58,696 nt of DNA from NCBI GenBank assembly GCA_964518995.1, contig CAZFJU010000002.1:1-58696 (forward strand). Direction: 5' to 3'. The number at the start of each line of letters is the position of its first letter. The first letter of the stretch is position 1. The notes beneath the pieces were generated by a model. It was given only the letters and a program-made list of their open reading frames with translations. It was not told where the DNA came from and did not search any database. Shown here piece after piece: positions 10,438-58,430 of the stretch. This DNA is from an uncultured Gammaproteobacteria bacterium (GTDB lineage: Bacteria > Pseudomonadota > Gammaproteobacteria > Steroidobacterales > Rariloculaceae). A program made the position numbers and the translations under genes.

Positions 10438-12224
10438 GACGGCATATCTTTCATGAGCCTGTGCGCTCACTGCGGGCCGGATCCAGCGCAAGGACGACTC
10501 TCCGCCTGAGAACCCGTCGACAGTTTTGGGCGTTGTGGCTCGCCGTCGGGCTGTTGGCGGCACTCAGCAGCGCACACGGCCAACCGCTTCCTGGCGACCT
10601 CACGCCGTTGCGCTCCATGGAGGGCCGGTCCGCATCTGCAGTCCCGGGAACCGTAACCCGGTCGAATGCTCCGACGGCGCCGGAGCCAAGCTCTGGCGCA
10701 GATGCGGCTACTCTCCTCGACGGTCGACACTCGCTCCCGCCGGCGGAGCTGCCAATGTTTGGTGAGCAGCTTTTCCACGGCGGGGCGCAAACTTACAGCG
10801 TCGGCTTCAACCCGGACTACTCGCTCTCGATTGGCGACCGCATCACCGTGCGCTTGTGGGGAGCGTTCGACTACGAAGCCGAGCAAACCGTCGACCCACA
10901 GGGGAACATCTTCATTCCGAACGTCGGCCCTGTGCGCGTGAACGGCGTAAGGAACGCGGATCTCAACGCCATCGTTCGCGCGGAAGTGCAACGCGTGTAT
11001 CGTGACAACGTCGATGTGTACGTCTCGCTCGAAGCCTCCCAACCGGTACGCATCTTCGTCACCGGCTTCGTCCGCGCGCCGGGTCAGTATGCTGGGGCGG
11101 CAGGCGAGTCGATTCTCGGATATCTCACGCGTGCCGGAGGGATCGATCCTCTGCGCGGCAGCTATATCGACATCGAGCTGCGCCGCAGCGGTGATACGCG
11201 GGCAACGTTCGACCTATACGACTTCTTGCTCCTCGGCCGGCTCGACCCTGTGCAACTCCAGGACGGCGACACCATCGTCGTCGGCGGTCGTCACAATACC
11301 GTGCGCGTGACGGGAGAGGTGTTCAACGCCTTCGGCTTCGAGTTCCGCGGCGATCGCATGTCCGCGGCCGACATCCTGTCTCTCGCGCGGCCGCGGCCTT
11401 CCGCGACGCACGTCAGCATCACGCACAAGACCGGCCTCAGACAATACGGCGAGTATCATGAGCTCGATCAGCTCGCCAGCGTGACGCTCGCCGCCGGCGC
11501 GGAGCTTGCCGTCGTTGCCGACCGAGCCGTTGAAACCATCCTGGTGCGCGTCGACGGTGCGGTAGAGAGCTCTCGCGTGCTCACGCTGCCCTATGGCTCG
11601 CGGCTCCGAGATGCGATTGAGCTACTGACATTGACGCCCGAGGCGCAGCCCGAGGCTCTACAGCTCTATCGCGCCTCGGTCGCCGAACGCCAACGGGAGA
11701 TGCTCGACGTGTCGCTGCGCGTGCTCGAAACCTATGCCTTGACTGCGCGCTCCGCCACGAGCGAGGAAGCCGCGCTCCGCGGACGAGAAGCAGAGCAGAT
11801 CAGCCGTTTCGTCGAGCGCGCCCGCACCGTCGAGCCGCGGGGCCAAGTGGTGCTCGCGGGACACGAGAGCGCGACCGAAACGTTGCTTCAGAACGGCGAT
11901 GTCCTCGTGATCCCCGAGCGGAGCACGATCGTGATGGTCCACGGCGAGGTGACGCAACCGAGCGCCATCGCGTTCGAGCCCAAAGCTAGAGTGCGCGACT
12001 ACGTAGCGATGGCCGGCGGAACCACACAGCGCCCGCGAAATACCCGAATGCTCCTGATTCGCCGAGACGGCTCGTTCGTGGAGGATCGCCGCGCGGTCCC
12101 GGAACCCGGGGACGAGATCCTCGTGCTGCCTCGGGTCGCATCGAAAAACGTCGAGATCACACGCGGCATCACGCAGATTCTCTATCAGCTCGCGATCGCA
12201 GCGCGCGTGGTGATCGACCTATAG
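10434..12224 (+). CDS. kpsD: polysaccharide export outer-membrane/periplasmic protein (KpsD/Wza-type OPX)
   Basis: Poly_export block GDRITVRLWGAFDYEAEQTVDPQGNIFIPNVGPVRVNG plus SLBB-like repeats (DGDTIVVGG, NGDVLVIPE, PGDEILVLP). Signal-like FWALWLAVGLLAALSSAHG. GTGA overlap with kpsE. Confidence 0.8.
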   Translation: MRRHIFHEPVRSLRAGSSARTTLRLRTRRQFWALWLAVGLLAALSSAHGQPLPGDLTPLRSMEGRSASAVPGTVTRSNAPTAPEPSSGADAATLLDGRHSLPPAELPMFGEQLFHGGAQTYSVGFNPDYSLSIGDRITVRLWGAFDYEAEQTVDPQGNIFIPNVGPVRVNGVRNADLNAIVRAEVQRVYRDNVDVYVSLEASQPVRIFVTGFVRAPGQYAGAAGESILGYLTRAGGIDPLRGSYIDIELRRSGDTRATFDLYDFLLLGRLDPVQLQDGDTIVVGGRHNTVRVTGEVFNAFGFEFRGDRMSAADILSLARPRPSATHVSITHKTGLRQYGEYHELDQLASVTLAAGAELAVVADRAVETILVRVDGAVESSRVLTLPYGSRLRDAIELLTLTPEAQPEALQLYRASVAERQREMLDVSLRVLETYALTARSATSEEAALRGREAEQISRFVERARTVEPRGQVVLAGHESATETLLQNGDVLVIPERSTIVMVHGEVTQPSAIAFEPKARVRDYVAMAGGTTQRPRNTRMLLIRRDGSFVEDRRAVPEPGDEILVLPRVASKNVEITRGITQILYQLAIAARVVIDL

Positions 12225-12246
12225 CGGCGGCGGGCAGAGCGCACTG

Positions 12247-14805: not shown

Positions 14806-14861
14806 ATTGTAATGCGAACCCAAGCCGTCCTTGGCCGGACTCAACGTGCAGGACCCGTGAG

Positions 14862-15836
14862 ATGAGTGATTCGATCAGTTTCCTCGACGACGATACCGTA
14901 CCCCTCTGCTGGGCCGCGTCATCTCAGCATACCGACGGCTACGCAAATATGGGCGACTCGCTGAGCGCTGCAATCGTCGCTGGACTGGCCGATCGCGCCG
15001 TATGTCATACCCATTTCGATGCGCCGACTTCCAAGCTGGTCGCCGTCGGCAGCATCGGGCACGCCATCACACACGGGCTCGCCGTAATGTGGGGATCCGG
15101 CGTATCCGCTCGCGGACCGCACTTGGCGCTGAATGTGCCACGAACCCGCTACGACGTACGAGCGGTGCGTGGTCCGATCAGCGCGAAGCATCTTAGAGAC
15201 CACGGCGTCTCAGCCCCGAGCATCTATGGAGATCCGGTCTGGTTCTTACCTTCGATGCTGCCCGATCCGGTCGAGCGAAAGTATGAGCTCGGGGTCATAC
15301 CGCACATCCAAGACATCGCCGGCCACCATCCTGCCGCGCCGCCGCGCCCGGAATCGCTCCGATGTATCGTCGACGAGCCGGACACGCACATTGCGGTCTT
15401 CAACACGTGGCACGAGCCCACCTGGGGAGGTTTGGTCGAGAAGGTGAACCTGCTCCGGTCATGCAAACGCATCCTTTCACAAAGCTTCCACGGAGTAGTC
15501 ATCGCGGAGGCGTATGGAATTCCGTCGATGAACTTCCGCTACGTGCCCGGCCGCAAGAACGGCGTGCTGCGGATCGATCTCCTCCGGGATTGCAGCACCG
15601 ATCCGCGCATCTGGGAGTTCTACAAAGGCGGCCGTTGCAACCATTTCCACATGTACAACCAACGACGCAACGAACGCACGGACTGGGAGGCCGTTATCAG
15701 AGCGATCGACGAAACGTGGGAGCCCTTTGATTACGACGCGGAGCCGCTCCTAAGTGCCTTCCCGCTCCCGCTGGCTTACGATCCTTTGTCGAATGCGATT
15801 CAGCGTCGCGAGAAACTGACGAATCTACAGTTCTAG
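14862..15836 (+). CDS. polysaccharide pyruvyl transferase family protein (ExoV/GumL-like), paralog of the C-terminal domain of the preceding gene
   Basis: GYANMGDSLSAAIVAGL .. VAVGSIGHAITHGLAVMWGSGVS .. ILSQSFHGVVIAEAYGIPSM .. AFPLPLAYDPL aligns colinearly with residues from about 535 to 852 of the upstream protein. ATG 14862 fits the domain boundary. TTG 14802 (TTGA overlap) is the alternative start. Confidence 0.75.
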   Translation: MSDSISFLDDDTVPLCWAASSQHTDGYANMGDSLSAAIVAGLADRAVCHTHFDAPTSKLVAVGSIGHAITHGLAVMWGSGVSARGPHLALNVPRTRYDVRAVRGPISAKHLRDHGVSAPSIYGDPVWFLPSMLPDPVERKYELGVIPHIQDIAGHHPAAPPRPESLRCIVDEPDTHIAVFNTWHEPTWGGLVEKVNLLRSCKRILSQSFHGVVIAEAYGIPSMNFRYVPGRKNGVLRIDLLRDCSTDPRIWEFYKGGRCNHFHMYNQRRNERTDWEAVIRAIDETWEPFDYDAEPLLSAFPLPLAYDPLSNAIQRREKLTNLQF

Positions 15837-15939
15837 GCCGCTGTTACAGCCGACGAACTGACGGTCGGCTTTCGATCCGCCCCATAGAGCTTCGCGCTTG
15901 CCCGACACCGCGCGATCGCACTTACACGCCAGGACGGTC

Positions 15940-17325
15940 ATGAACCCAAAAAACATCCTCATCGATGGCTTCAACCTGGGCTTAGAACACGGTACAGGCG
16001 TCGCCACGTACGCGAGAAACCTCAGCTACTGCGCGAGGGACTTGGGCTATCGAGTCAATGTCCTCTACAACCGGTCGATGCCGAGCAAGAACCGCTTACT
16101 CAAAGAAGTCGCGTTCTTCGATCCGGCGGAACCACCTTCACCGAACTGGCTCGTGCAACTCCGCCGTGGCGCAGACATCGCTCGCCTCGGGATGGGGGTT
16201 ACAGCCAAGCCGGTGCCGGTGACCGGAAACGTCATCTACACAACCTATCAATCGCGCATGCCCTACTTCGACACCATTTGGAACTACGCCGATGTGTTCG
16301 GGCGCGCAGACAGACATTTCTATCTGAGTCGGTTCCTGTCTCCAATGCGACTTCGGGTCAAGCTGAACGGAGTCAAGCCCGACATCGCTCATTGGACCTA
16401 TCCGCTGCCCATGTTCGTGCCCGGCACGAAGAATATCTATACGCTGCACGATCTCGTCCCTCTACGGCTGCCCTATACAACCTTGGACCGTAAGCGCCAC
16501 TACTTCCGGCTCATGCAAACCCTAGCCCGCAAGGCGGACCACATCATCACCGTCTCGGAAACATCGAGGCGGGACATCATCAATCTGCTCGGCGTGAAAG
16601 AGCACCAAGTCACCAACACCTACCAGTCGGTAGAAATACCGGAAAAATACGCTTCCAAGTCGAACGACCTGGTTCAGCGGGAGGTCGAGGGAACGTTCAA
16701 CCTGAAGTACAAAGGATATCTGCTCTTCTTCGGCGCTATAGAGCCGAAGAAGAACGTGGGGCGGTTGATCGAAGGTTACCTGGCATCCGGAGTCGAGATT
16801 CCACTGGTGATCGTTGGCAAGCGGGCCTGGAAGTCCGAGCAGGAGCTCAGGCTGTTGAACGACGAATCAACATCGTATCTGGAACAGCTCGGCTCCCTCA
16901 CCTACCGCCGCAGACGCGTATTTCATGTCGACTACGCTCCTTTCCCGTTACTAGTCAGTCTCATTCGGGGCGCCCGAGCCGTGGTCTTTCCATCCCTTTA
17001 CGAAGGCTTCGGCTTGCCTGTGCTCGAGGCGATGAAGCTCGGCACGCCCGTCCTGACGTCATCAACGGGTGCGCTGGCAGAGGTCGCCGGTGACGCCGCT
17101 CTCCTCGTCAATCCTTACGATACGCGCGAAATCGCAGAGGGAATTGCTGCCCTCGCGCAAAATGACGAGCTACGCGGCGACCTGGCCGCAAAGGGCGTGG
17201 CGCGTGCTTCGTTGTTCTCCAAGCAGGCGTATACCCGCCGACTCGAAGAAGTGTATGACCGAGTCCTCGCGAAGAAGAATAGTCGCGTGGCGGCGGAGAC
17301 GCCCGGGCTGCTCAGCGGCGTTTAG
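15940..17325 (+). CDS. glycosyltransferase family 4
   Basis: MNPKNILIDGFNLGLEHGTGVATYARNL N-terminus and EX7E region YEGFGLPVLEAMKLGTPVLTSSTGALAEVAGDAALLVNP. AGGACGG lies upstream of ATG 15940. Confidence 0.85.
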   Translation: MNPKNILIDGFNLGLEHGTGVATYARNLSYCARDLGYRVNVLYNRSMPSKNRLLKEVAFFDPAEPPSPNWLVQLRRGADIARLGMGVTAKPVPVTGNVIYTTYQSRMPYFDTIWNYADVFGRADRHFYLSRFLSPMRLRVKLNGVKPDIAHWTYPLPMFVPGTKNIYTLHDLVPLRLPYTTLDRKRHYFRLMQTLARKADHIITVSETSRRDIINLLGVKEHQVTNTYQSVEIPEKYASKSNDLVQREVEGTFNLKYKGYLLFFGAIEPKKNVGRLIEGYLASGVEIPLVIVGKRAWKSEQELRLLNDESTSYLEQLGSLTYRRRRVFHVDYAPFPLLVSLIRGARAVVFPSLYEGFGLPVLEAMKLGTPVLTSSTGALAEVAGDAALLVNPYDTREIAEGIAALAQNDELRGDLAAKGVARASLFSKQAYTRRLEEVYDRVLAKKNSRVAAETPGLLSGV

Positions 17326-17391
17326 CGATGCTGCGGCTCTACCGTAAAGTCTTACCGGTCAGTGGTCGACTGGCACGCCTGGCAAGCGTCA

Positions 17392-18534
17392 ATGCGAACT
17401 AGCGCCTCCGCGTCGCCACCTCGAATCCTGGTGTTCAACTTCTTCGGCGGGGTGCTGGACCGCGGCATTCCGCATTACGCGCAAGATGTCGTGGAATGTA
17501 TGCGGCGCCTCGGTTTCCAGCCGGTTGAACTGCGTTGCCCGCGCTCGTTGGTCGCCGCTCCGCGCTACATCAGGAACCTGCTCTTCGTGCTGGCGGAGCA
17601 GATCATCGCTCCGCTCATGCGTATCGCCAGCCGATGTTCGTTTACCGTCTACTGTTACAACTCAGCGGGTGTGGTCGATGCTCTGCTCGGCCGCTCGGTC
17701 GTGATCGTTCATGATCTCATTCCGAACCGACGAAGAAATGCCACGCTGGCCGCACGTTATGTTCGCATCACCCAGGCAGCCCACACAGCGCTCCGCCGCC
17801 CGGTCTGCGCCGCGTCGGCACATACCTTCCAGCGGCTGCAGCGACTCCGCTCTTTTCGTTGTTGCCCGCTCGAGCTATGGCCGAACGCATTCTACTCGTT
17901 TGAACGTGCTTTGACGGCGCCAGCGACGTGTTCGCCGGGAAGGACCGGCCGCGCTCGAATTCTGCTGTGCAGCGGCATCGGCTCGAACAAGGATTATGCT
18001 GGCGCGATCAGAATGGTGCGCCGCAGTCCGGTGCTTCGTGACGCCGAGATCCGTATCGTTGGGTTCGGAGACGACGCTCATCTTGCAATGCGTCGCGTGT
18101 CGGCTTGGCCGACTGACCAACGCGAACGCATAGTCGTGCTCCCTCGCCTGACGTTACGTGAGCTGATCGCGGAGTACCAATCGAGTGACGTAGTCTGGGT
18201 ACACTCCAAAGCTGAAGGGTTCGGACGCTGGATCGTCGAAGCGAAGCTTTGCGGTCGCCCTGTAGTCGCAAGTCGAATCGGCGCGTTTTTGAAATTCGTT
18301 CCCTTGGGCGTCCACTGCTACCGCGGCGACGATTTCGACTCCACGGTCCGCGCTGCATTGGCTGCCGCCGGGCGCGACACTCCGCTCTCTCTCGCCGATT
18401 GCCACGCTCCCCTCGAAGCCGCGATGCGTCGCCTGGTGTCACTCATGACCGGCGCGTCGCCTGCAGGGCAGGGCTGGAGCCCATACGAGCAATCTGTGAC
18501 TCAAGGCATACCTAGGCGCGGCGAGTTGCCGTAG
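17392..18534 (+). CDS. glycosyltransferase, GT-B fold (divergent GT4-like)
   Basis: RILVFNFFGGVLDRGIPHY, VVIVHDLIPN, and C-terminal VVWVHSKAEGFGRWIVEAKLCGRPVVASRIGAF (EX7E-like). Start is ATG 17392 or GTG 17362. Confidence 0.6.
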   Translation: MRTSASASPPRILVFNFFGGVLDRGIPHYAQDVVECMRRLGFQPVELRCPRSLVAAPRYIRNLLFVLAEQIIAPLMRIASRCSFTVYCYNSAGVVDALLGRSVVIVHDLIPNRRRNATLAARYVRITQAAHTALRRPVCAASAHTFQRLQRLRSFRCCPLELWPNAFYSFERALTAPATCSPGRTGRARILLCSGIGSNKDYAGAIRMVRRSPVLRDAEIRIVGFGDDAHLAMRRVSAWPTDQRERIVVLPRLTLRELIAEYQSSDVVWVHSKAEGFGRWIVEAKLCGRPVVASRIGAFLKFVPLGVHCYRGDDFDSTVRAALAAAGRDTPLSLADCHAPLEAAMRRLVSLMTGASPAGQGWSPYEQSVTQGIPRRGELP

Positions 18535-18642
18535 ATTACGTAACGCTGTATAGCCTCGCTATCCATCCGTTACTTCCTTCGTGCTTGCCATGAGTTTGTA
18601 AGCCGGAGTTGGCAGTCGGTGCATCGAGCTTAAGGGGAGCAC

Positions 18643-19767
18643 GTGCAGGGACTTTGGCCGGCACTGGCCAGCTTTTCGATCTGTCTTCTTGCCACGGTGG
18701 CGTTGCGACCCATAGCGATAGCACTCGACCTCATCGACCGGCCGGAAGCGAGGAAGCTCCATGAGGGCGCTATTCCGCTGGTCGGCGGTCTTGCAATGCT
18801 CCTCGGGATCGTGCTGGGCACGGAGCTTGTTCCTCTTCCGAGCGGCACGAGCGCGTCGTTTCTCTCGGCATGCGCGCTACTTGTCGCGGTCGGACTGATC
18901 GACGATCGCTTTGGGCTTTCACCATGGGCACGCCTCTGCGCTCACGCTGCGGCCGCGGCGCTGTTCGTAATGGGGTCCAATACTGTCATCGGCACCCTTG
19001 GCGATCTTTTCGGCAACGGCCCGGTCATACTGCCCGGGCTATGGGCCCACGTCTTCACGGTGCTCACCATCATGGCCGCGATCAACGCGTTCAACATGCT
19101 TGATGGAGTGGACGGATTGGCCGGCGCCGTGGCGATCGTGTCGCTGATCGGCATGACGGCGCTCGCGCTCGGAACGGGCGAAATGATCCCAGCGCTCCTC
19201 GGACTCGTGATCGCCGGCGCCGTGGCCGCGTTCTTGCTTTCGAACCTGCCGATAACCTTCAACCGCCGTGTCCGCTGCTTCATGGGCGATTCAGGCAGCA
19301 CATTGCTCGGCTTCGCGGTGGTCTGCGTAGGGATTCTGCTCTCCCAGCAGCCGGCGCCGCCGGTCGCCCCGGTCACGGTGCTTTGGCTCGTCGCGCTGCC
19401 GCTTTATGACATTATCTGGAGCATCGTGCGGCGAAGCATCCGGGGCCAATCGCCGTTCAGGGGCGACAAAGAGCACCTGCATCACCTGCTGCTGCGCGCC
19501 GGATTCAACGTGCCGAGCACGTGCCTTCTGCTCGCGGCACTTGCGTTATTGCTCTCGGCCGTTGGCGTCGGGCTAGAGCTTGCGGGCGTTTCAGAGTCTC
19601 GTTCGTTCGTCGCACTCTGCCTGACTGGTGCCCTCGTCGTGAGCTCGACGCATCGCTCACACACGATACGGCGGTTGCTGCCCGGATCGATGCTGGCCGA
19701 TCCGGGGTCTGTCGGCGAACAGCCGCGTCCGCCGAGCGACTTCGATAGCGACTACGGCAAAGCGTAG
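18643..19767 (+). CDS. wecA: undecaprenyl-phosphate HexNAc-1-phosphate transferase (MraY/WecA family)
   Basis: LIDDRFGL, AINAFNMLDGVDGLAG, FMGDSGSTLLGF and DKEHLHHLLL motifs. About 10 TM helices. AAGGGGAG lies immediately upstream of GTG 18643. Confidence 0.85.
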   Translation: MQGLWPALASFSICLLATVALRPIAIALDLIDRPEARKLHEGAIPLVGGLAMLLGIVLGTELVPLPSGTSASFLSACALLVAVGLIDDRFGLSPWARLCAHAAAAALFVMGSNTVIGTLGDLFGNGPVILPGLWAHVFTVLTIMAAINAFNMLDGVDGLAGAVAIVSLIGMTALALGTGEMIPALLGLVIAGAVAAFLLSNLPITFNRRVRCFMGDSGSTLLGFAVVCVGILLSQQPAPPVAPVTVLWLVALPLYDIIWSIVRRSIRGQSPFRGDKEHLHHLLLRAGFNVPSTCLLLAALALLLSAVGVGLELAGVSESRSFVALCLTGALVVSSTHRSHTIRRLLPGSMLADPGSVGEQPRPPSDFDSDYGKA

Positions 19768-38058: not shown

Positions 38059-38064
38059 GCAGTA

Positions 38065-38090
38065 GAGCCCCCGGCTTGCGCCGGGGGCTC
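38065..38090. terminator. bidirectional stem-loop terminator between convergent phoX and G8 gene
   Basis: GAGCCCCCGGC (38065..38075), loop TTGC, GCCGGGGGCTC (38080..38090): a perfect 11-bp GC-rich stem. It lies 7 nt after the phoX stop and 26 nt after the G8 gene stop. There is no clear U-tract. Confidence 0.6.
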
Positions 38091-38115
38091 TAGTTCAGTC
38101 CGCAGGTATTGAATT

Positions 38116-40674
38116 TTACCTGAGCACTTCGATGCGGGTTCCTACTCCACCGAAATTGCCAGGGCTGCCGGCACTGCCGGCATCTTCTACGACATCGACC
38201 ACGAGCTTGACCCAAAGCGTGTCGCCGTCGGCGTAGTACGCGGTGTGACTCGCCTCGCGCAGCGCAGCCAGGCTGCTTTGCTCTGCGCCCGCAGCGGCCT
38301 TGGTGAACCCGGGCAGCTCGAAGATTACCCAGGAGCCCTCGTCCATCTGGCTCAGGGACAGCGGCAAGGATTCTCTTTTTGTATTGACCGTAACTTCGGC
38401 TCCGCTGCGGATCGTGGTTTGCCCCCGGAACTCGAAATCCCGGCCGTTACGGCTGAGAATGACCGGCTCAGCATCCCGGTTAGCGCCGAATCCGAAACCA
38501 CCGCCGAGACTGAGGCGACCGAAATCACCCTGACACACAGCAGCGCCCCATGTTGGCTTGATCTCACAGGCTTCTTCGTCGGACGCGATGCCGTTGTCGA
38601 TGACAATGTACGAATCCGGCACACCGCTGATTGAGCCGTCCAAGTCGTGAATGGCCGCGGTCAGATACGCTCCACTGCCCCCAAAGTCGTTAGCCCACTT
38701 TTCCAACCGCTCCGGGAAGTGCACCGGCTTGGCGTTGACGAACTTCAGGCCTTTAGCGGCGTTCTCGGTGCTCATCCCAAAGCTGGTATAGAGCAGATAC
38801 GAGAGCGCTCCTGCCTCGCGAGTGTCGTTGTCTTCGTAATTCACGAAGGTGGTGTTCTCGATCGTATGCACGAAGTCGTAGTACTCGTAGCCACGAATCG
38901 GGAAATCCGCGATCGCTTTCGGCAAGCTGCGGCCGTACGCGATTTCCTCCGGCGTTTTGGGGTTACCGATGTTGTCGGTTTCACCCACGAACAGCGAGTC
39001 AATGACCTTTGACGTGAAGGGGTCACGACCGATCGAGCCGGAAGCAAACGTGTAGCCGATAGCGTTGTCGGCGAGCTTCAGATTCCGGAATACCTTCATC
39101 TCGCCGCGGGCCCAGACGCCGCCATTGCGGTTCTTGTAGGCCGTGAAATCCTCGATGACCGACTCAATCGACTTGCTGTTCGGATCAGCGGGGTTCTCAC
39201 GTGCGATATGCGAGCTGCCGGTCACACCGAAAGTGTTATCGGCCGCGAAATTGCGGTCGAACATCAGGCCATCGAAGTTCGAGTGGGCGACGTTGCCCCT
39301 GAACTCCCCTTGCGGCATTCGACGCGGCCAGGTGTTCGCGCTGATCTCCGTGCCCTCGAACGCGCCGTTCGGATGCTCCGGCAACGAGAACCAGAAGCCG
39401 GTCGAGTCGGAACCTGCGGCTACGTTGTCGATGTAATCGTTGGACGGGTTGGTGATCCAGAACGTCGCGGCCGTGTTGTCCGAAGGAATCAGGATATGTT
39501 CGGATCTCTGGCCTGCGAAGCTACCCGGGTCGGAGGGTATCCCGAGGTTGGTCGGCACACACTCCATGGTCGGATGGCACTTGGTTTGGATACCGAGATT
39601 GCGAACGAGCTGGTTACCCTGCTCGATGCCGTCTTCCATGAAGAAGCAGTGCCCGACGGTGTTGTAGGTGACGTTGTTTTCGACACGCAGATTATCCGTG
39701 CCGTGAATGGTCACGCAGCGGTTGTAGGTGTTGTGAATCGCAGAGTTTCTGATGTACTGCCCCGTCACGTCGCCGTTCAGATGCCAGTGGATCGGGTAGC
39801 GGGCGAGCTCCAGGTGCTGCCCCATTCGGTACAACTCGACGCCGGACACATTCATCGTGCTTCCCGCCATCGCCATGATATGCCCGCCGACATAGGTCTC
39901 TTCGGCGTCGGCGGAAGCCCGAACTTTGATATTGCGCGTCAGCAAGCCGACCTCACCGCGTTGGTCGACGTCGAACGTGATCTCACCGAAATGCATGTAC
40001 TCGAGCGGCTGATCGAGCGTCAGCGTATTGCCGTCGATGGCCGCGATGTGGCGCGTCTCCGCTTGCCTCGGATCGAAATCCGTCGAAGCCAGGACGATCT
40101 GGTCACCGACTCGCCAGCCGCTGGCATCTAGAACCTCGATCTTGGTGCTGCCGGCCTCGGCAGTTTCGGCCAGCTTGGTCCACGCGTTCTCCCGATCACC
40201 GTGCAGGCTCAGCACCCCGCCGACAATCATGATCCCACGGTCACCCATTCCCATGACGTTCTCGTCGGGGACGTTGTTGGTCAGGGTGATCGTCGCGTTG
40301 CGCGTATGAGGATTGTTTTCGCTCCCGGCATGCAGCTCCCCACGCAGCAGAATCCACTCGGTGGTGAGCTCGACGTCCTTATCGTCGGCAAAGCTGAGCG
40401 TGCCGTTGAGATTCAAACCGTGCAGCGCCGGCGGATCCACATCGAGGACGATATCCATCCCCTCGTCGATTGTGACGATGTCGCCGGCCTCCGGCAGTAC
40501 GCCACCGGACCAAGTGGATGGATCGGACCACAGTCCGCCTTTGACGGCCGAGTAGCCCTGCTCTTGGGCCTCGACGTGAGCATGCTCCTGTGCTTGGGCG
40601 CCAGCAGCCCCGCTGACGGCAACACCGGCCGCTATAAGCCATGACGAAAAGAACGGACGATGGAGTATTCGCAT
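38116..40674 (-). CDS. secreted G8-domain / right-handed beta-helix protein (CEMIP/TMEM2-like architecture), copy 1
   Basis: Signal MRILHRPFFSSWLIAAGVAVSGAAGAQA. G8 block GGLWSDPSTWSGGVLPEAGDIVTIDEGMDIVLDVDPPALHGLNLNGTLSFAD..ELTTEWILLRGELHAG. Beta-helix (PbH1-like) turns ARYPIHWHLNGDVTGQYIRNSAIHNTYNRCVTIHGTDNLRVENNVTYNTVGHCFFMEDGIEQGN. Confidence 0.85.
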   Translation of the reverse strand: MRILHRPFFSSWLIAAGVAVSGAAGAQAQEHAHVEAQEQGYSAVKGGLWSDPSTWSGGVLPEAGDIVTIDEGMDIVLDVDPPALHGLNLNGTLSFADDKDVELTTEWILLRGELHAGSENNPHTRNATITLTNNVPDENVMGMGDRGIMIVGGVLSLHGDRENAWTKLAETAEAGSTKIEVLDASGWRVGDQIVLASTDFDPRQAETRHIAAIDGNTLTLDQPLEYMHFGEITFDVDQRGEVGLLTRNIKVRASADAEETYVGGHIMAMAGSTMNVSGVELYRMGQHLELARYPIHWHLNGDVTGQYIRNSAIHNTYNRCVTIHGTDNLRVENNVTYNTVGHCFFMEDGIEQGNQLVRNLGIQTKCHPTMECVPTNLGIPSDPGSFAGQRSEHILIPSDNTAATFWITNPSNDYIDNVAAGSDSTGFWFSLPEHPNGAFEGTEISANTWPRRMPQGEFRGNVAHSNFDGLMFDRNFAADNTFGVTGSSHIARENPADPNSKSIESVIEDFTAYKNRNGGVWARGEMKVFRNLKLADNAIGYTFASGSIGRDPFTSKVIDSLFVGETDNIGNPKTPEEIAYGRSLPKAIADFPIRGYEYYDFVHTIENTTFVNYEDNDTREAGALSYLLYTSFGMSTENAAKGLKFVNAKPVHFPERLEKWANDFGGSGAYLTAAIHDLDGSISGVPDSYIVIDNGIASDEEACEIKPTWGAAVCQGDFGRLSLGGGFGFGANRDAEPVILSRNGRDFEFRGQTTIRSGAEVTVNTKRESLPLSLSQMDEGSWVIFELPGFTKAAAGAEQSSLAALREASHTAYYADGDTLWVKLVVDVVEDAGSAGSPGNFGGVGTRIEVLR

Positions 40675-40745
40675 GAAATCAGCCTCCCGGCACTCGGCTT
40701 TCGGAGTCCCGTACTTGAGCGAGTCAGAACGGCGCGAGCGATGAG

Positions 40746-40785
40746 CTTATATCAGAAGCATGCAGTTGGGCGTTAAGAATTCTTA
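40746..40785 (-). promoter_or_regulatory. candidate extended -10 promoter plus 12-bp perfect palindrome upstream of G8 copy 1
   Basis: On the gene strand, TGATATAAG (40754..40746) matches the extended -10 pattern TGnTATAAT. TAAGAATTCTTA (40774..40785) is a perfect AT-rich palindrome in GC-rich DNA, 100 bp upstream of the start codon. Both elements recur upstream of G8 copy 2. Confidence 0.45.
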
Positions 40786-40888
40786 TATGGCCGGCCGCCC
40801 CGGCGAGCCCGCAGCCGCGGCACGGCTCGATCGTCGGTCCGGCCACGATCCGCTATAATCGGACCGCTCGAAGTTCAGGACCAGCGTC

Positions 40889-41311
40889 TTGCGCGATCCA
40901 AACCCCAAATTTCTCGCCAGTTTCATGCTCGCCGTCGGAATGACCGTCGGGCAGGTCGCACTGGCCGATTCCGACCAGCTGGCCGCCAAAACCGCCGCGC
41001 CGAGCTCGACGCCCGCGCGTCTGACCGGCCCGCAGGTCTACAACAACGTCTGTATCGCCTGTCACTCCCCGCCCGGCATCGGCGGTGCACCGGCGCTCGG
41101 CGACGCCAATGCCTGGGCCGCGCGTATCGGCCAAGGCATGGACACGCTCATCGGTCATGCGCTGCGCGGATTGTCCGGCAGCACGGGCATCATGCCGCGC
41201 AAGGGCGGGCGGCTCGACCTCTCCGATGAGGAGGTGATCGCGGCGGTCGAGTACATGGTCGCGCAGGTCGCCGATCGCGACGATCGAGCCGCCCAGAAGG
41301 CAGCTCGATGA
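40889..41311 (+). CDS. cytochrome c5-like class I c-type cytochrome
   Basis: CIACHS heme motif, then GIGGAPALGDANAWAARIGQGMDTLIGHALRGL..GIMPRKGG..LSDEEVIAAVEYM. Signal MRDPNPKFLASFMLAVGMTVGQVALA (TTG start). TATAAT at 40854..40859 lies upstream. Confidence 0.8.
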   Translation: MRDPNPKFLASFMLAVGMTVGQVALADSDQLAAKTAAPSSTPARLTGPQVYNNVCIACHSPPGIGGAPALGDANAWAARIGQGMDTLIGHALRGLSGSTGIMPRKGGRLDLSDEEVIAAVEYMVAQVADRDDRAAQKAAR

Positions 41312-52307: not shown

Positions 52308-52339
52308 CGAAAGCCCCCGGATTGCGCCGGGGGCTTTCG
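52308..52339. terminator. stem-loop terminator downstream of G8 copy 2, nearly identical in sequence to the hairpin after copy 1
   Basis: CGAAAGCCCCCGG (52308..52320), loop ATTGCG, CCGGGGGCTTTCG (52327..52339): a 13-bp stem, 20 nt after the G8 stop. The core AGCCCCCGG-N-GCGCCGGGGGCT is shared with 38065..38090. Confidence 0.55.
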
Positions 52340-52358
52340 TTACTCAGCGGAGCTGAAT

Positions 52359-54938
52359 TTATCTGCTGACGTCGATGCTGGTCCTACCCCCCGGACCACC
52401 CGAGCCCGGACCGCCTGGTCCGTCGAGGACCGGCGGACCGCCGACATCGGCGACCACCAGCTTGACCCAAAGGGACTCGTCATCGCGGTAATAGGACGTC
52501 TCACTGGCGTCGCGCAGCGCATCGAGGCTGCTTTGCTTCACGCCCTGGGCCGCGGTGGTGAACTGGGGAAACTCGAAAATCACGAACGAACCCTTGCCCA
52601 TTTCCTGTAGGGAAAGAGTCAGCGTATCCCGGGCCGTCTCGACCCTGACCTCGGCGCCGCTGCCGATCGTGTTGCCCCCGGTGTACTCGAACCGCCTGCC
52701 GTTGCGTTGGAGGATGATCGGATTGGTGATGGGGCCAGCCTGGAACCCACTGAAGTCACCGGCGATGCTCAGGCGGCCCATATCCCCCGTGCAGATCGCT
52801 GCATTCCAGGTCGGCTTCATCTCGCAGGTTTCTTCGTCGGATGCGATGCCATTGTCGATGACGATGTAGGCGCCGGGAGTGCCAGTGACCGAGCCGTCCA
52901 GGTCGCGGAACGCCGCACTCTTGTAGGCAGCACTGCGCCCCCAGTCAGACGCCCAGCGGCGCTGCAGCGGCGGGAAGCTGACCGGCTTGGCGTTCTCGAA
53001 TTTCATGCCCTTCACCGAGTTCTCGGTGCTCATGCCGAAGCTGGTGAATAACAGATAAGAGAGCGCGCCCGCGTCGCGAAGCTCGTTAGACTCGTAGTTC
53101 ACGAACGTGACGTTTTCCACCTCGTGATGAAAATCATAGAACTCGTAACCGCGGATCGGGAAATCAGCATACCCGGCCGGCATCGGCAGACTGCGACCGT
53201 ACGCGATTTCCTCCGGCGTCGTCGGATTACCGATGTTGTCGCTCTCCCCTACAAACAGCGAGTCGACGACCCGTGACGTGTAGGGTGCGATGCCCGGAGC
53301 ACCGGACGCATGGGTAAAGCCGATGCCGTTATCCGCCAGTTTCAAGTTGGTGTACAGATGCATCTCACCGCGGCCCCAAACAGCGCCATTGCGGTTTTTG
53401 TAGCCGGTGAAATCGTCGAAGTGCCCCACCAGCACCTCGCTGCTCGTATCAGCAGGATCGGCGTAGGTGATCAGGTTGGGACCGGCGATACCGAAGGTGC
53501 CGTCCGGTCTTTGGCCGCGATCGAGCATCAGGCCATCGAAATTGGAGTGCGCGGTATTGCCGCTGAACTCCCGCAGCCTCGACCGTCCGGGCCATGTATT
53601 GGCGCTGATCTCCGTTCCTTCGAACGCCCCGACCGGATGCGTAGGGATCGCGAACCAGAAACCGATCTGGTCCGAACCCGCCGCCACGTTGTCGCGGAAG
53701 ATATTGTCCGGGTGCGTGATCCAGAACGTGGAGACCGTGTTGTCCGAAGGGATCAGGATATGCTCGGAGGCTTGGCCTTCCGTCGACTGATAAGCCAGAA
53801 CCAGGTTCGTCGGCTCACAAGGCAGCGTCGGATGACACTTGGTCTGAATCCCCAAGTTGCGCACCACCTGGTTGCCCGTCTCGATGCCGTCCTCCATGAA
53901 GAAGCAGTGCCCGACCGTGTTGTACGTGACGTTGTTCTCGACCAGCAGGTTGTCCGTGCCGTGAATCGTCACGCAGCGGCTGTAGGTGTCGTGAATCGCC
54001 GAGTTCTTGATGTACTGCCCGCTCGCGTCGCCCATCAAATGCCAGTGGATCGGATAACGGGCGAGCTCCAGGTGCTGACCCATTCGAGTCAATTGGATAC
54101 CGGACACATTCATCGTGCTTCCGGCCATCGCCATGATATGCCCGCCAAACCACGTCTCTTCGGCATCGGCGGACGCCTGAACTTTGATGTTACGCGTCAG
54201 CAAGCCGACTTCGCCGCGTTGATCGACTCCGAACGTGATCGCGCCGAAATGCATGTACTCGAGCGGCTGATCCAGCGTGATCACATTACCGCTGATCTCG
54301 GCGATGTGCCGCCTCTCCGCCTGCCTCGGGTTGAAATCCGTCGAGGCCAGAACGATCTGGTCACCGACTCGCCACTCGCTCGCGTCGAGCACTTCGATAG
54401 CCGTGCTGCCGGCTTCGGCGGTTCGAGCGAGCTTGGTCCAGGCGTTCTCCCGATCGCCGTGCAGGTTCAAGGTCCCGCCGACAATCAGGATCCCGCGGTC
54501 ACCCATGCCATTGATGTTTTCGCCAGGGACATTATCGGTCAGCGTGATCGTCGCATGACCTGTGTGAGGGGCCCCTTCACTGCCGATCTGCAGCTCGCCG
54601 CGCAGCAGAATCCACTCGGTGGTGAGCTCGACATCCTGGTCGTCGGCGAAGCTGAGCCTGCCGTTCACGTTCATGCCGTAAAGCGCCGGCGGGCTGACGT
54701 CGAGGACCACGTCCAGGCCCTCCGCGATGGTAACGATGTCACCCTCCGCCGGCACCGCGCCGCCCGACCAAATGGACGAATCCGACCAAAGCCCGCCGCG
54801 GATCGCCGAAGCGCCTTGCTCCTGCGCTGCCGCGGGCTCGTGCGCCGCGGCGTGCTGCTGCGCCTGGGCGCCCGCGCTGACCGCGAAGCAGGCGGGAACG
54901 AGCAATGAAAGCAGAAACAAGCGATTGTGTATTCGCAT
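52359..54938 (-). CDS. secreted G8-domain / right-handed beta-helix protein, copy 2 (paralog of 38116..40674)
   Basis: ATG 54938 gives signal MRIHNRLFLLSLLVPACFAVSAGAQA. GGLWSDSSIWSGGAVPAEGDIVTIAEGLDVVLDVSPPALYGMNVNGRLSFAD, ARYPIHWHLMGDASGQYIKNSAIHDTYSRCVTIHGTDNLLVENNVTYNTVGHCFFMEDGIETGN. Colinear with copy 1 over essentially the full length. Confidence 0.85.
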   Translation of the reverse strand: MRIHNRLFLLSLLVPACFAVSAGAQAQQHAAAHEPAAAQEQGASAIRGGLWSDSSIWSGGAVPAEGDIVTIAEGLDVVLDVSPPALYGMNVNGRLSFADDQDVELTTEWILLRGELQIGSEGAPHTGHATITLTDNVPGENINGMGDRGILIVGGTLNLHGDRENAWTKLARTAEAGSTAIEVLDASEWRVGDQIVLASTDFNPRQAERRHIAEISGNVITLDQPLEYMHFGAITFGVDQRGEVGLLTRNIKVQASADAEETWFGGHIMAMAGSTMNVSGIQLTRMGQHLELARYPIHWHLMGDASGQYIKNSAIHDTYSRCVTIHGTDNLLVENNVTYNTVGHCFFMEDGIETGNQVVRNLGIQTKCHPTLPCEPTNLVLAYQSTEGQASEHILIPSDNTVSTFWITHPDNIFRDNVAAGSDQIGFWFAIPTHPVGAFEGTEISANTWPGRSRLREFSGNTAHSNFDGLMLDRGQRPDGTFGIAGPNLITYADPADTSSEVLVGHFDDFTGYKNRNGAVWGRGEMHLYTNLKLADNGIGFTHASGAPGIAPYTSRVVDSLFVGESDNIGNPTTPEEIAYGRSLPMPAGYADFPIRGYEFYDFHHEVENVTFVNYESNELRDAGALSYLLFTSFGMSTENSVKGMKFENAKPVSFPPLQRRWASDWGRSAAYKSAAFRDLDGSVTGTPGAYIVIDNGIASDEETCEMKPTWNAAICTGDMGRLSIAGDFSGFQAGPITNPIILQRNGRRFEYTGGNTIGSGAEVRVETARDTLTLSLQEMGKGSFVIFEFPQFTTAAQGVKQSSLDALRDASETSYYRDDESLWVKLVVADVGGPPVLDGPGGPGSGGPGGRTSIDVSR

Positions 54939-55017
54939 GGACTTAGATCCCCCGGGATACTCGACTTCTGGATTCCGGCATTTGGGCAGCGCGGACCGCA
55001 AGATTACCAGCCTGCAA

Positions 55018-55062
55018 ACTATATCAGGCAAGCCGGTCAGAATCGGCCATTAAGAATTCTTG
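55018..55062 (-). promoter_or_regulatory. candidate extended -10 promoter plus AAGAATTCTT palindrome upstream of G8 copy 2
   Basis: On the gene strand, TGATATAGT (55026..55018). TAAGAATTCTTG lies at 55051..55062 (10-bp perfect palindrome core), 113 bp upstream of ATG 54938. Same order as upstream of copy 1. Confidence 0.45.
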
Positions 55063-55406
55063 TCTTTCCGGCCGCGGGCCGGCTCGGCAGCCGCTCGCGG
55101 AAACGCAGGCGGCTGACCGTGGTCGGGCGCCTCCCGCTTGCAGCCGCTGTCACGGCTTTCGGCGAGGGTGTCGAGGACCGCTTCCGAGGGCCGCGGCCAG
55201 CGCTCCGTTGCGTTTTCCTGACAGGCGGCGCTAAGGTACATCCGCAGCCTACAATTAGCCGCCGTTCTCTAAACTTGGCCACGCTTGTCGCAACGATAAA
55301 GGACCTTGCGTGTGTCGCGACCGGCATAAAGGTGACACCACGCTCGTGGCGAGCCGTTCCCTCACGCCCGCGGCATCAGCAAGAGCAACAATTGGGGAAT
55401 TCGAAA

Positions 55407-58400
55407 ATGGCTGGGAAATTGAACCCATCTCAACCTTTTATGATTTCCGCGCTTTCTGCGACGATTGCAGCGATTCTTGCAGCCGGGGGGAACGTTGCTA
55501 TCGGGCAGGAAGAAGTCAGGGCGGTGGAGGAGATCACCGTCACTGGCTCTCGTATTCAGCGCTCGACCGGTTTTACGACGCCCGTGCCTGTGACTGCGGT
55601 GACGCCGGATGAACTGACGAATTTCGAGCCCGGCAATCTCACGGCCGAGCAGCTTGACAGCCTGCCGCAGTTCTTCAACACGCATACCGCGCAGCGCGGC
55701 CATCTGAACCGAGCCGTTGTCGGCACCGGTGGCGCGGGCCTGATGAACATGCGCAATCTAGGCACTTCCCGCACGCTGATCCTGCTGGACGGCGCCCGTC
55801 TCGTGCCTCAGGGCGGCGCTGGCGGCACCAATGTGGACGTGCTCCCCACCGCGCTGATGAGTAGCGTCGATGTCGTAACCGGCGGCGCTTCGGCGGCATA
55901 CGGCGCGGATGCCGTCGGCGGCGCGGTCAATTTCGTCCTGAACCGCGAGTTCGAGGGCCTCAATGTCAGCACCGGAGTAGGCGCTCATGAGCACAAGGGC
56001 ACGGGCCAGCAGTGGAACCTGTCCGTTGCCGGAGGCCATTCGTTCATCGACCAGCGTCTTCATTTAATCGGCTCCTTCGAAGCTCGCCAGATCGATTACG
56101 TTCGCGGCGACCGGCGCCGCTATAGTGATTTCAGACGCACCGGCTATGTGTTCAATCCCGACCCGAACGGGCCAGCAAGGATCCGGACGGATTACGTGTT
56201 TCCGACCACCACCTCCCCCACGGGACTGATCCGAGGCACGGGCACGGAGCTCGATGGAATGCAGTTTACGATCGACGGCACGGGCCTCGAACCCTTCGAC
56301 GCTTCGTGCGCCGCGATCGTGTCTGCGAGCAACGCTGGCGGCAACCCGGATTGCCCGGCTTATCAGCGTTTCGATGACGCCACAGCGGAACCCGGCAACG
56401 GGCAGGAGGTCACCAACCGCGCGGGCTTCTTGGCGGCGCAGTGGCGGTTCAGCGACACCTTATCCGCATATGTCCAGGGCATGTATGGGCGCACGACCTC
56501 CGGCGGCCCGGGCGAAGGCGTCTACTATTTCGCGCAAAACCAATGGATCCCCCGTATTTTCCCGGAGAACCCCTTCCTGCCGGACGAAGTAAGGCAGGTC
56601 ATGCTCGATAACGACATGGAGTACCTCGAGACCAACAAAGCCGGCATGATGTCCCACGCGCAATATGAAGTCGGTTCCACCACGAGGCCCGACAATCGCC
56701 ACACTCAAACGCAGTACGGCGTAGGCTTCAATTGGGATATCTCGCCAAGGTGGCATCTAAGAGGTTCCTGGCAGACGGGTGACTACGAGGGCAATCAGCA
56801 CGAACGTAATCTGACCCAGATTGACCGGCAGGTCCTGGCCACGGACGCCGTCCGCCACCCGGTTACCGGGGAAATCGTCTGTAACGTGCAGCTATACAAC
56901 CCTTCGCTCGAGCAGCTGGCGGCGGCACCGTCTATCCAGGGCCTCAATTCGAGCCGCCCGCTCAATCCCTATGAGCCCACCGGAGTTCCGGGCAACACTC
57001 AGCCTCTACCCTATCCGGTGGAGCCGGCGGCGATTCCATCCTGCGTGCCGCTCAACTTCCTGGGCTCGGGCAATGCAAGCCGGGAAGCGGTGGAGTACAT
57101 CGGCACGGGGACGACCAACCGTTTCGTGGTGGATCAGGATTTTGCCGAGCTGATGGCAACCGGCGAGCTGGCCACGCTTCCGGCCGGCACGCTGAGTGGA
57201 GCCTTCGGGCTGACTTGGCGCGAGCAGAGTTTTCTTCAAGGCAAGGTGCCGGCGGAAATTGATCTGTTGGGCGGTGTCATCAACACGCCGGAGCTGGGCA
57301 TTCGCGGCGCCTCCCCCGGCTGGGCCGGCGGCGCGGGCAGTCTGCATTTCTTCTCGGGCGTGCCGCATGTAGGCGGCAAGTACGACGTTTGGGAATGGTT
57401 TAGCGAAGTCGACGTGCCGGTCTGGGAACACAATACACGGTTCCTGTCGCTGAGCGGCGCGTTCCGCCGGTCGTATTACGACAACGGCAACATCGGGGAA
57501 AGCTGGAAGCTGGGGATGAACTTTCAGGTCCACGAGGATCTGCGATTGCGATACACGAATTCAAGGGATGTGCGTGAGCCGACCTTTAACGAACGCTTTG
57601 CACGCTCTGGCTTCGGTTCCAACATCGAAGATCCGGAGCTGGATTTGAACTACTTGATTAGCGGCGTCTCGGGCGGTAACCCGAACGTCGATGCTGAAAC
57701 CGCGGAAACCGTTACAGCAGGTTTCGTATACCAGCCAAGCTTCGCGCCCTGGGTCAACGGACTGCAGCTCAGCGTGGACTTCTGGGACGTCGAGATCCGC
57801 GGGGCGATCAATAGTGTGAGCGTACAACGAATCATCGACGATTGTTTCGCCGGCGCGCAGGCGATGTGCGCGAACATCGAGCGGGACCCCGCCACCGGCT
57901 TCATCACTCAGGTTAATTCTGGGGTACAGAACCTCGGCCGGGAGACGGTGAAGGGCACGGACTTCGAGATCGTCTATCAGTCAGAGCCGAATCTCTTTAG
58001 CAACCAGTCCGAAGCGTTTCAATTGCGCTTCCTTGGCGGCTACATCAAGGAGGCGGGAGATATTCCGGAAGGCGGGCTCTTCCAGGACGTATCCGGGACC
58101 CTTGGATTTCCCGATTTTACCGGGGTTGTCACCGCCAATTATGACGTCGGTCCGTATTCCTTCCGTCTACAAGGAACGTACACCGGTTCCGTGGCGTTCA
58201 ACGGAAACTGGATCGAGGGAATCGATGTGGACGACAACTCCGTGTCTTCAGAGACCGTCATCAGTGCGCAGTTTGGTTATCGCGGGACGTTCGCCAACGG
58301 TGCCGCCTGGAACGCACGGCTCAATATCACCAACCTGCTCGACACGGAGGCTCCGATTATGGCCCTGGGTAGCCCCGGATATGAGAGGTTCGGCAGGCGC

Positions 58401-58430
58401 TACAACATGAACTTTAATTACTCATTCTAA
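55407..58430 (+). CDS. TonB-dependent receptor, paralog of 29876..32932
   Basis: ATG 55407 gives MAGKLNPSQPFMISALSATIAAILAAGGNVAIG. Plug EEITVTGSRIQRSTGFTTPVPVTAVTPDELTNFEPGNLTAEQLDSLPQFF, NMRNLGTSRTLILLDGARL, VDVVTGGASAAYGADAVGGAVNFVL. Ends YNMNFNYSF. The 160-codon ORF-track N-terminal extension is rejected. Confidence 0.9.
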   Translation: MAGKLNPSQPFMISALSATIAAILAAGGNVAIGQEEVRAVEEITVTGSRIQRSTGFTTPVPVTAVTPDELTNFEPGNLTAEQLDSLPQFFNTHTAQRGHLNRAVVGTGGAGLMNMRNLGTSRTLILLDGARLVPQGGAGGTNVDVLPTALMSSVDVVTGGASAAYGADAVGGAVNFVLNREFEGLNVSTGVGAHEHKGTGQQWNLSVAGGHSFIDQRLHLIGSFEARQIDYVRGDRRRYSDFRRTGYVFNPDPNGPARIRTDYVFPTTTSPTGLIRGTGTELDGMQFTIDGTGLEPFDASCAAIVSASNAGGNPDCPAYQRFDDATAEPGNGQEVTNRAGFLAAQWRFSDTLSAYVQGMYGRTTSGGPGEGVYYFAQNQWIPRIFPENPFLPDEVRQVMLDNDMEYLETNKAGMMSHAQYEVGSTTRPDNRHTQTQYGVGFNWDISPRWHLRGSWQTGDYEGNQHERNLTQIDRQVLATDAVRHPVTGEIVCNVQLYNPSLEQLAAAPSIQGLNSSRPLNPYEPTGVPGNTQPLPYPVEPAAIPSCVPLNFLGSGNASREAVEYIGTGTTNRFVVDQDFAELMATGELATLPAGTLSGAFGLTWREQSFLQGKVPAEIDLLGGVINTPELGIRGASPGWAGGAGSLHFFSGVPHVGGKYDVWEWFSEVDVPVWEHNTRFLSLSGAFRRSYYDNGNIGESWKLGMNFQVHEDLRLRYTNSRDVREPTFNERFARSGFGSNIEDPELDLNYLISGVSGGNPNVDAETAETVTAGFVYQPSFAPWVNGLQLSVDFWDVEIRGAINSVSVQRIIDDCFAGAQAMCANIERDPATGFITQVNSGVQNLGRETVKGTDFEIVYQSEPNLFSNQSEAFQLRFLGGYIKEAGDIPEGGLFQDVSGTLGFPDFTGVVTANYDVGPYSFRLQGTYTGSVAFNGNWIEGIDVDDNSVSSETVISAQFGYRGTFANGAAWNARLNITNLLDTEAPIMALGSPGYERFGRRYNMNFNYSF

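Follow-up and report, generated by a model that had tools for sequence, protein, structure and literature searches.

The closest described relatives of the proteins reported here are vertebrate TMEM2 (CEMIP2) and CEMIP (KIAA1199, HYBID), hyaluronan-degrading animal proteins in which a G8 domain runs into a long right-handed parallel beta-helix. In TMEM2, an additional lectin-like (GG) domain is inserted and a second lectin-like domain forms the C-terminus. Mutation of R265, D273 or D286 in the inserted domain abolishes activity (PMC10206443); the activity of TMEM2 itself, binding or cleavage of hyaluronan, is disputed (PMC10206443 versus PMC10474455). Our literature search found no study of bacterial G8/CEMIP-like proteins. 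Here we analyze two such genes, copy 1 and copy 2, in a stretch of 58,696 nucleotides (nt) from an uncultured gammaproteobacterium (contig CAZFJU010000002.1 of assembly GCA_964518995.1), hereafter the window. The nearest named relatives of the host are metagenome-assembled genomes (MAGs) of ‘Candidatus Rariloculaceae’. Very probably, the two copies belong to old paralogous lineages, termed a (copy 1) and b (copy 2), within a large, multicopy family of G8/CEMIP-TMEM2-like beta-helix proteins exported through Sec, in which each gene is autonomous, mostly monocistronic, and inherited together with its control region and 3' untranslated region (UTR), the cis-elements of both being kept by selection.

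38116..40674, minus strand: copy 1, G8/CEMIP-like paralog of the a-type lineage (852 amino acids, Sec signal peptide)
52359..54938, minus strand: copy 2, G8/CEMIP-like paralog of the b-type lineage (859 amino acids from the ATG)

The genes lie 11.7 kb apart on one contig. For copy 2, the ATG at 54938 is the sensible choice of start, the longest open reading frame extending to a TTG at 55031. Both proteins contain the Pfam domains G8 (PF10162; copy 1: 98.1 bits, 4.4e-28; copy 2: 92.8 bits, 1.9e-26) and CEMIP_beta-hel (PF24606; copy 1: 272.4 bits, 3.7e-81; copy 2: 279.7 bits, 2.1e-83), which clear the gathering cut-offs of 22.9 and 27.3 bits respectively; a Pfam scan of both proteins detected no further domain. 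Among solved structures, the human TMEM2 ectodomain is the nearest (8c6i; phmmer E 2.7e-92 over residues 67-721). An AlphaFold2 model of copy 1, of medium confidence (pLDDT 72.5, pTM 0.75), likewise matches 8c6i_A (Foldseek E 1.8e-37, TMq 0.73), and polysaccharide lyases and depolymerases from bacteria and phages come next. With TMEM2, the bacterial proteins have in common the motifs RYPIHWH, GHCFFMEDGIE and HSNFDG. In contrast to TMEM2, they lack the inserted lectin-like domain, the alignment jumping from 8c6i chain residue 167 to 334 and leaving 168-333 unmatched. They also lack the C-terminal lectin-like domain and instead carry a beta domain of ~130 residues, the last strand of which follows a Gly/Pro-rich linker. 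Unlike TMEM2, they are exported through Sec by a cleavable signal peptide, encoded in multiple copies, and ancestrally paired with a cytochrome c.

The first-pass annotation of this DNA had described the copies as colinear and mostly identical, with similarity reaching outside the coding sequence. This is borne out by alignment. The proteins are colinear and identical at 587 of 831 residues (71%, BLASTP), and differ, as had been claimed, in the signal peptide, a His/Gln-rich stretch and the C-terminal tail. When the two regions were compared by blastn with 400-nt flanks, the genes matched in a single high-scoring segment pair of 2538 nt with 73.8% identity. This begins 105 nt within the coding sequence and stops 47-50 nt past both stop codons (38066; 52312), beyond a GC-rich hairpin. 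Two further segment pairs, colinear and weaker, lie upstream of both start codons, where homology reaches ~125-130 nt and takes in an AT-rich box, a TGnTATA box and the leader. The similarity thus passes both the start and the stop codons.

Downstream, the inherited unit would end in a 3' UTR of ~55 nt, composed of a small hairpin and then a GC-rich hairpin with a GNRA loop that may serve as an intrinsic terminator.

38063..38092, minus strand: GC-rich hairpin of copy 1, predicted terminator (13-bp stem, GCAA loop on the gene strand, no T-run; match to covariance model R1 at 38057-38117, 57.4 bits)
52308..52339, minus strand: GC-rich hairpin of copy 2, predicted terminator (13-bp stem, 6-nt loop, weak T-rich tail; match to covariance model R1 at 52303-52361, 64.6 bits)
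52343..52357, minus strand: small stop-proximal hairpin of copy 2 (ATTCAGC-TCC-GCTGAGT)

The GC-rich hairpins noted earlier after both genes read and lie exactly as first described, and their core, AGCCCCCGGCGCAA(G/T)CCGGGGGCT, is identical at 24 of 25 positions in the flank alignment. The small hairpin sits between the stop codon and the GC-rich hairpin and has the family consensus TTCAGC-NNN-GCTGAA, followed by ATGAA; in copy 1 it is degenerate (~38093..38115). The convergent phoX gene has its stop codon 5 nt before the GC-rich hairpin of copy 1, which therefore probably terminates transcription in both directions.

These elements are nearly confined to the gene family. In the genome (4.58 Mb, 65.5% GC), the exact stem GCCCCCGG-N3-9-CCGGGGGC occurs at three sites, namely both window copies and contig C175, and all three are within 100 nt downstream of a G8-family gene. 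A looser pattern, CCCCGG-N-CCGGGG, has seven sites, four of them after family genes. In the genomes of five relatives, eight of nine exact-stem sites follow a family gene in the same way, at a distance of no more than 100 nt. A covariance model of the whole 3' module (stop codon, small hairpin and terminator hairpin) found nine distinct sites with E<1e-4 in five genomes outside its training set, every one directly after a family stop codon. Its remaining matches in the host genome are weak and fall on generic terminators; two that were considered as further 3' modules proved to be the terminator of a 5S rRNA operon (C107) and an unrelated terminator (C153). Across the family, 47 of 94 distinct downstream regions carry a hairpin of this class, with a median start 21 nt past the stop codon, a median stem of 12 bp and mostly a GCAA loop. 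The stem variants covary (GCCCCCGG/CCGGGGGC, AACCCCGG/CCGGGGTT, AAACCCGG/CCGGGTTT, GGCCTTCGG/CCGAGGGCC, CCCCCAGCC/GGCTGGGGG).

Many terminators are built as a GC-rich hairpin with a GCAA loop. The family hairpin resembles the Rho-independent terminators with a C(GNRA)G tetraloop that end many proteobacterial genes and small RNAs, such as the BjrC68 terminator of Rfam, in its GC-rich stem of 9-13 bp, its usual GCAA loop, its T-rich tail in about half of the family's cases and its place just after the stop codon. The window copies differ in having no clear U-tract. Unlike in generic intrinsic terminators, the stem sequence is kept between paralogs with saturated synonymous sites, and a second, small hairpin precedes it and is conserved too. 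Sub-threshold Rfam matches score 23.5 and 21.1 bits, against a gathering threshold of 39. A known small RNA at the 3' end was rejected as an explanation, since the matches to BjrC68 and BSnc120 stay far below their gathering scores and depend on the stem of the terminator. The hairpin is best read as a putative intrinsic terminator.

Upstream, the unit would include a control region of ~130-250 nt that was ancestrally common with a divergent cytochrome c gene, and that is predicted to comprise an AT-rich box (AATGRCAAGAATTGT), a TGnTATA box, a TGCTATTCT-like box and a strong Shine-Dalgarno sequence.

55050..55062, minus strand: AT-rich box of copy 2, CAAGAATTCTTAA on the gene strand, -124..-112 from the ATG
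40773..40785, minus strand: AT-rich box of copy 1, TAAGAATTCTTAA, -111..-99 from the ATG
55018..55026, minus strand: extended -10-like box of copy 2, TGATATAGT
40746..40754, minus strand: extended -10-like box of copy 1, TGATATAAG

The matches previously seen at these positions are genuine: AAGAATTCTTAA is shared at 12 of 12 positions and CTGATATA at 8 of 8. The gap between the two blocks is 18 nt in copy 1 and 23 nt in copy 2, copy 1 having a 5-nt deletion between the AT-rich box and TGATATA relative to copy 2 and the relatives. The combination of AT-rich box and TGATATA recurs in relatives of both lineages, in which AATGRCAAGAATTGT is the family consensus of the former and the TGn-type -10 motif is kept as TG(A/C/G)TA(T/C)A, the TGn abutting a TATAAT-type hexamer. 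A hidden Markov model built from the 140-nt upstream regions of ten relatives, with the window and all coding sequence excluded, has exactly two matches in the 4.58-Mb genome, which are the promoter regions of copy 2 (E 5.5e-13, 54940-55070) and copy 1 (E 3.5e-8). Likewise, strict patterns of the AT-rich box matched nowhere in the genome but at these two promoters. Homology is patchier and weaker in the ~80-nt leader, where GGGGG-N9-ATGCGAATAC is conserved at the start region and the sequence between conserved blocks has decayed to about neutral identity with indels. Further conserved intergenic blocks are gcTTGCCTGATATAGG, GGnnAATCnTGCTATTCT (decayed in both window copies) and the Shine-Dalgarno region; the second, TGCTATTCT-like box of the control region is decayed in the window copies.

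RNAalifold predicted no pairs across 24 leaders and an Rfam scan of the window returned nothing at gathering thresholds, and a riboswitch or attenuator in the leader was rejected. Given this lack of predicted RNA structure, the conserved blocks are read as DNA-level signals. The AT-rich box may be a site for an activator or for the alpha subunit of RNA polymerase, through which the paralogs would be co-regulated. By inspection, it was rejected as a -35 element, TTCTTA/TTGTCA being too distant from the -10-like box (22-27 nt), and as a sigma-54 site, for which the GG-N8-GC spacing is unsuitable. A promoter-proximal palindrome had also been proposed as part of the duplicated unit, and this did not hold up. 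The dyad symmetry AAGAATTCTT is peculiar to this genome and a local accident: the relatives have CAAGAATTGTCAA, CAAGAATTGTTAA, CAAGAAATCTTAA or CAAGAATTAGG at the site, as well as AAGAATTGTC/GTT/AATCTT, and conservation is limited to the 5' half, AATGRCAAGAATT. A palindromic operator of a dimeric regulator was rejected on these grounds. The palindrome depends on a derived C in AAGAATTCTT that is common to the two window copies, and most orthologs of either copy have G there. Two other AAGAATTCTT sites (contigs C9 and C236), considered for a wider regulon, look intragenic.

The flank identity would reflect purifying selection on cis-elements, not recency. By the Nei-Gojobori method, synonymous divergence (dS) between the copies is 0.96, a range in which values are imprecise and which to that extent weakens the case, and the ratio of nonsynonymous (dN) to synonymous divergence is 0.22. 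Four-fold degenerate sites are 56% identical between the copies, compared with 34% expected from base composition alone, so that the flank blocks conserved at 24/25, 12/12 and 8/8 positions are better kept than neutral decay would leave them. These cis-elements delimit a probable regulon among uncultured proteobacteria of sediments and soils, and can serve to locate family members and gene ends in fragmented MAGs.

Flank identity might instead come mainly from gene conversion (concerted evolution) between paralogs of the same genome, an explanation that we consider improbable, although conversion may account for part of the pattern within the genes. Partial gene conversion between bacterial paralogs is familiar, for example from tufA and tufB in Salmonella. 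In the present family, divergence between paralogs is mosaic.

39775..40542, minus strand: conversion-prone 5' third of copy 1, codons 45-300, in which paralogs are as similar as orthologs (counterpart in copy 2 at ~54033..54800)
G017:C4:5562-10675 (L009/L022/L097) and L021:3001-8359: tandem loci of a- and b-type genes, ~30-250 nt apart

Over residues 45-300, the window paralogs are 82% identical, compared with 78-86% for orthologs, and dN between paralogs is 0.123, compared with 0.10-0.13 for the orthologs of copy 1. Over residues 301-560, paralog identity falls to 68% against 85-92% for orthologs, and paralog dN rises to 0.232 against 0.06-0.08 for the orthologs of copy 1. Since the patterns cross between these segments, constraint alone is insufficient to explain them. 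When five a-type were compared with five b-type orthologs, all lineage-diagnostic sites (47 fixed and 55 disjoint) lay at residue 303 or beyond, with none in the first 300. The tandem pairs of genome G017 and MAG locus L021 are 88-89% identical in the first ~300 codons (dS 0.32-0.48) and 68% identical in the rest, a sequence pattern that clearly indicates recent partial gene conversion of the 5' third. As with tufA and tufB, part of the gene remains or becomes more similar between paralogs than the rest, and the tandem copies of relatives have a younger 5' third. In contrast to tufA and tufB, conversion is limited to the first ~300 codons and the remainder defines stable, functionally distinct lineages.

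The similarity of the N-terminal (N) part in the window pair and the shared derived C in AAGAATTCTT would both fit conversion as the source of the flanks. Against this, the genes are most diverged (dS 1.2-1.8) just where the 3' module follows, which is nevertheless 24/25 identical, the same module is kept in genomes with unrelated sets of paralogs, and the leader between the upstream blocks has decayed as described. In a tree of the N part, copy 1 and copy 2 still group with their own lineages, so that any conversion in the window pair is old. We therefore favor selection on the cis-elements, while gene conversion between paralogs may have homogenized the first third of the genes and possibly the promoter as well. 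On this reading, specialization would sit in the distal beta-helix and the C-terminal domain; the mosaic pattern locates it there, with an exchangeable 5' third and diagnostic residues after 303.

Several points weigh against this account of an inherited unit with selected cis-elements. Neither window hairpin has a proper T-run: the tails are CTACTGCTCAT in copy 1 and TCGCCTGTTCG in copy 2, each with 4 T in 11 nt, compared with at least 5 T in the tails of 24 of the 47 family hairpins. A terminator scan of the window called neither hairpin. The covariation of the stem (94% of cells paired over 32 family members, compensatory change in 10 of 12 pairs, equaled by 0 of 500 shuffles) was computed on rows that a hairpin finder had preselected, so that the share of paired cells is inflated. 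In addition, the commonness of the GCAA-hairpin design, evident from the weak sub-threshold Rfam matches, means that part of the cross-phylum similarity could be convergent. A promoter scan found no sigma-70 -35/-10 pair at either copy and no -35 element, and the 5-nt difference in upstream spacing is half a helical turn, which is awkward for a face-specific activator. For the window pair, it is difficult to tell cleanly whether the N part was converted long ago or whether, as an alternative, the middle and C-terminal parts underwent a burst of divergence. Finally, promoter, transcription start and hairpin-mediated termination are all predictions from sequence.

The family extends well beyond this genome. 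More than 5,700 homologs were found, mostly in uncultured Gammaproteobacteria, and also in Erythrobacteraceae and MAGs of other phyla at 64-71% identity. These comprise L035, L037, L046 and L047, from MAGs labelled Terriglobia/Acidobacteria, and L051-L096, from Erythrobacteraceae and other Alphaproteobacteria; L035 and L060, outside the Gammaproteobacteria, have an identical terminator hairpin. The presence of hairpin and gene in other classes and phyla suggests either horizontal transfer or mis-binned contigs.

This distribution, together with the multicopy state and the existence of tandem arrays, could be taken to mean that gene and hairpin form a mobile cassette, with the 3' hairpin and perhaps the AT-rich box as recombination or transposition sites. 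A G8 gene on a 5.5-Mb contig (L098) even lies between DDE transposase genes (7207-8997; 13117-13806), a hint of occasional mobilization of single genes. We nevertheless regard a cassette as highly improbable. Neither direct nor inverted repeats flank the window copies, and they are not accompanied by a recombinase. Across genera, the cytochrome gene stays beside the G8 gene. The hairpin shows the covariation of a stem in RNA or DNA, about half its members have T-rich tails like those of terminators, and its place is fixed relative to the stop codon and not to the end of the unit.

Within the genus, the family is present in all nine sampled genomes, most of which are multicopy. The host genome holds at least seven members: three complete genes (both window copies and one on contig C91), a nearly complete one on C129, and five fragments at contig ends. 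The C91 protein, at 78% identity, is nearer to copy 1 than copy 2 is. Copy 1 has orthologs in two other genera (G017 83%, G014 82%), and copy 2 in six other genomes (G001 89%; G004, G006 and G007 82-83%; G017 80%; G014 79%). In a maximum-likelihood tree of 87 family members, the copies fall in deeply separated clades, and G017 carries a- and b-type genes in tandem behind one cytochrome gene. As closer orthologs exist in other genera, the split between a and b predates at least three genera. The first-pass annotation had proposed a segmental duplication that retained regulation and then subfunctionalized, and two parts of this proposal stand, namely that the unit includes promoter-proximal DNA and a terminator hairpin, and that the divergence is consistent with specialization. 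A recent two-copy event in this genome, with promoter, gene and terminator copied together before subfunctionalization, would account for the colinear flanks and the proximity of the copies on one contig, but is already contradicted and can hardly be entertained given the dS, orthologs that are 8-18 percentage points closer than the paralog, the deep separation in the tree, the number of family members with C91 closer to copy 1, and the retention of copy 1's cytochrome synteny in another genus. The duplication itself is ordinary, its products being old paralogs with selected cis-elements in a family that has expanded; what deserves note is the pairing with a cytochrome and a 3' UTR specific to the family.

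Six contigs of the assembly break inside G8 genes (C129 start, C229 end, C255 end, C33 start, C402 start, C175 end). The G8 family is a cause of assembly fragmentation, and its true copy number (at least seven) is uncertain. In two closed genomes of the genus, three family copies each have an in-frame TAG near residue 175-180, where the match splits (G003:C1:4391006-4397993; G009:C1:4737900-4740579); these copies may be pseudogenes or split genes.

The genes next to the two copies differ, as had been noted, copy 1 being divergent from a cytochrome and copy 2 from a TonB-dependent receptor.

40889..41311, plus strand: small periplasmic c-type cytochrome, divergent from copy 1 (Pfam Cytochrome_CBB3, Cytochrom_C)
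40675..40888, no strand assigned: full divergent control region between copy 1 and the cytochrome gene (214 nt)
40854..40859, plus strand: predicted cytochrome promoter TATAAT, inside a conserved CGCGATTATAGCGnATCGCG block
54939..55104, minus strand: remainder, in front of copy 2, of the ancestral control region between cytochrome and G8 genes (166 nt matched to L011 by blastn, 77.5% identity)
55407..58430, plus strand: TonB-dependent receptor, divergent from copy 2 (1007 amino acids; Pfam Plug, TonB_dep_Rec_b-barrel; start inferred from the signal peptide)

This contrast is not original to the duplicates. A cytochrome of ~135 amino acids, 52-71% identical across loci, divergently adjoins G8 genes of both lineages in ~18 distinct gammaproteobacterial loci (the window, L009, L011-L014, L021, L023, L030, L033, L036, L038, L042, L045, L053, L056, L057 and L064). 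The copy 2 orthologs in G001, G004, G006 and G007 are also divergent from the cytochrome, and no TonB receptor is adjacent there. Homology between copy 2 and the upstream region of its closest ortholog ends 166 nt before the ATG, at ~55104, and tblastn of 54900-55500 detected no cytochrome remnant. Judged by sequence comparison, the ancestral unit is a divergent pair of a small cytochrome c and a G8 gene, and copy 2 has lost its cytochrome by a rearrangement with its breakpoint 166 nt upstream of the ATG. As the orthologs lie beside the cytochrome, the TonB-receptor neighbor is secondary. Copy 2 resembles proteobacterial polysaccharide-utilization-type loci in being divergent from a TonB-dependent receptor, of which the window has three; unlike in such loci, the adjacency is not conserved in its orthologs. 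The genome has one such cytochrome and at least seven G8 genes.

We read the proteins as putative polysaccharide-active beta-helix proteins of the periplasm or the exterior, which would act on polysaccharide possibly together with the cytochrome. On the same contig, positions 1..19000 of the window hold a cluster for capsule or exopolysaccharide synthesis and export, with GT4 glycosyltransferases, two polysaccharide pyruvyl transferases, a Wza-like Poly_export/SLBB protein and an ABC-2 transporter. This cluster may be of interest should the host's own polysaccharide be what the G8 proteins remodel.

A more specific role can be offered only tentatively, as we think it rather unlikely to be correct: the cytochrome c and the beta-helix protein may form a functional redox module with a family-specific control region and 3' UTR of its own, in which the beta-helix protein would be a metal-dependent oxidative polysaccharide enzyme and not a classical hydrolase or lyase, and the paralogs that have lost their cytochrome, such as copy 2, would share the single remaining one through retained promoter logic. 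The many invariant His, Cys and Met residues and the cytochrome partner leave a redox role open. If true, such a module would bear on the unresolved catalytic mechanism of animal CEMIP and TMEM2. More generally, bacterial relatives that are free of lectin domains and paired with a cytochrome offer a simple system for learning how beta-helices of the CEMIP/TMEM2 type work.

Across 42 homologs, invariant His, Cys and Met residues are dense in residues 227-372 of copy 1 and at 464 (window ~39280..39995): M227 and H228; H265, M267, M269 and M274; M284 and H287; H296 and H298; H324; H342 and C343; C366, H367 and C372; and H464. Several of them are also present in TMEM2, and the set in copy 1 may be a metal site. 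The C-termini of the family (residues 826-852 in copy 1, 833-859 in copy 2, and all seven 3' ends in the genome) consist of a low-complexity Gly/Pro/Ser linker and a last strand of the form (I/V)x(V/L)(S/N/R)R before the stop codon. In the AlphaFold model, this linker is disordered and the final seven residues form a beta-strand docked on the C-terminal domain.

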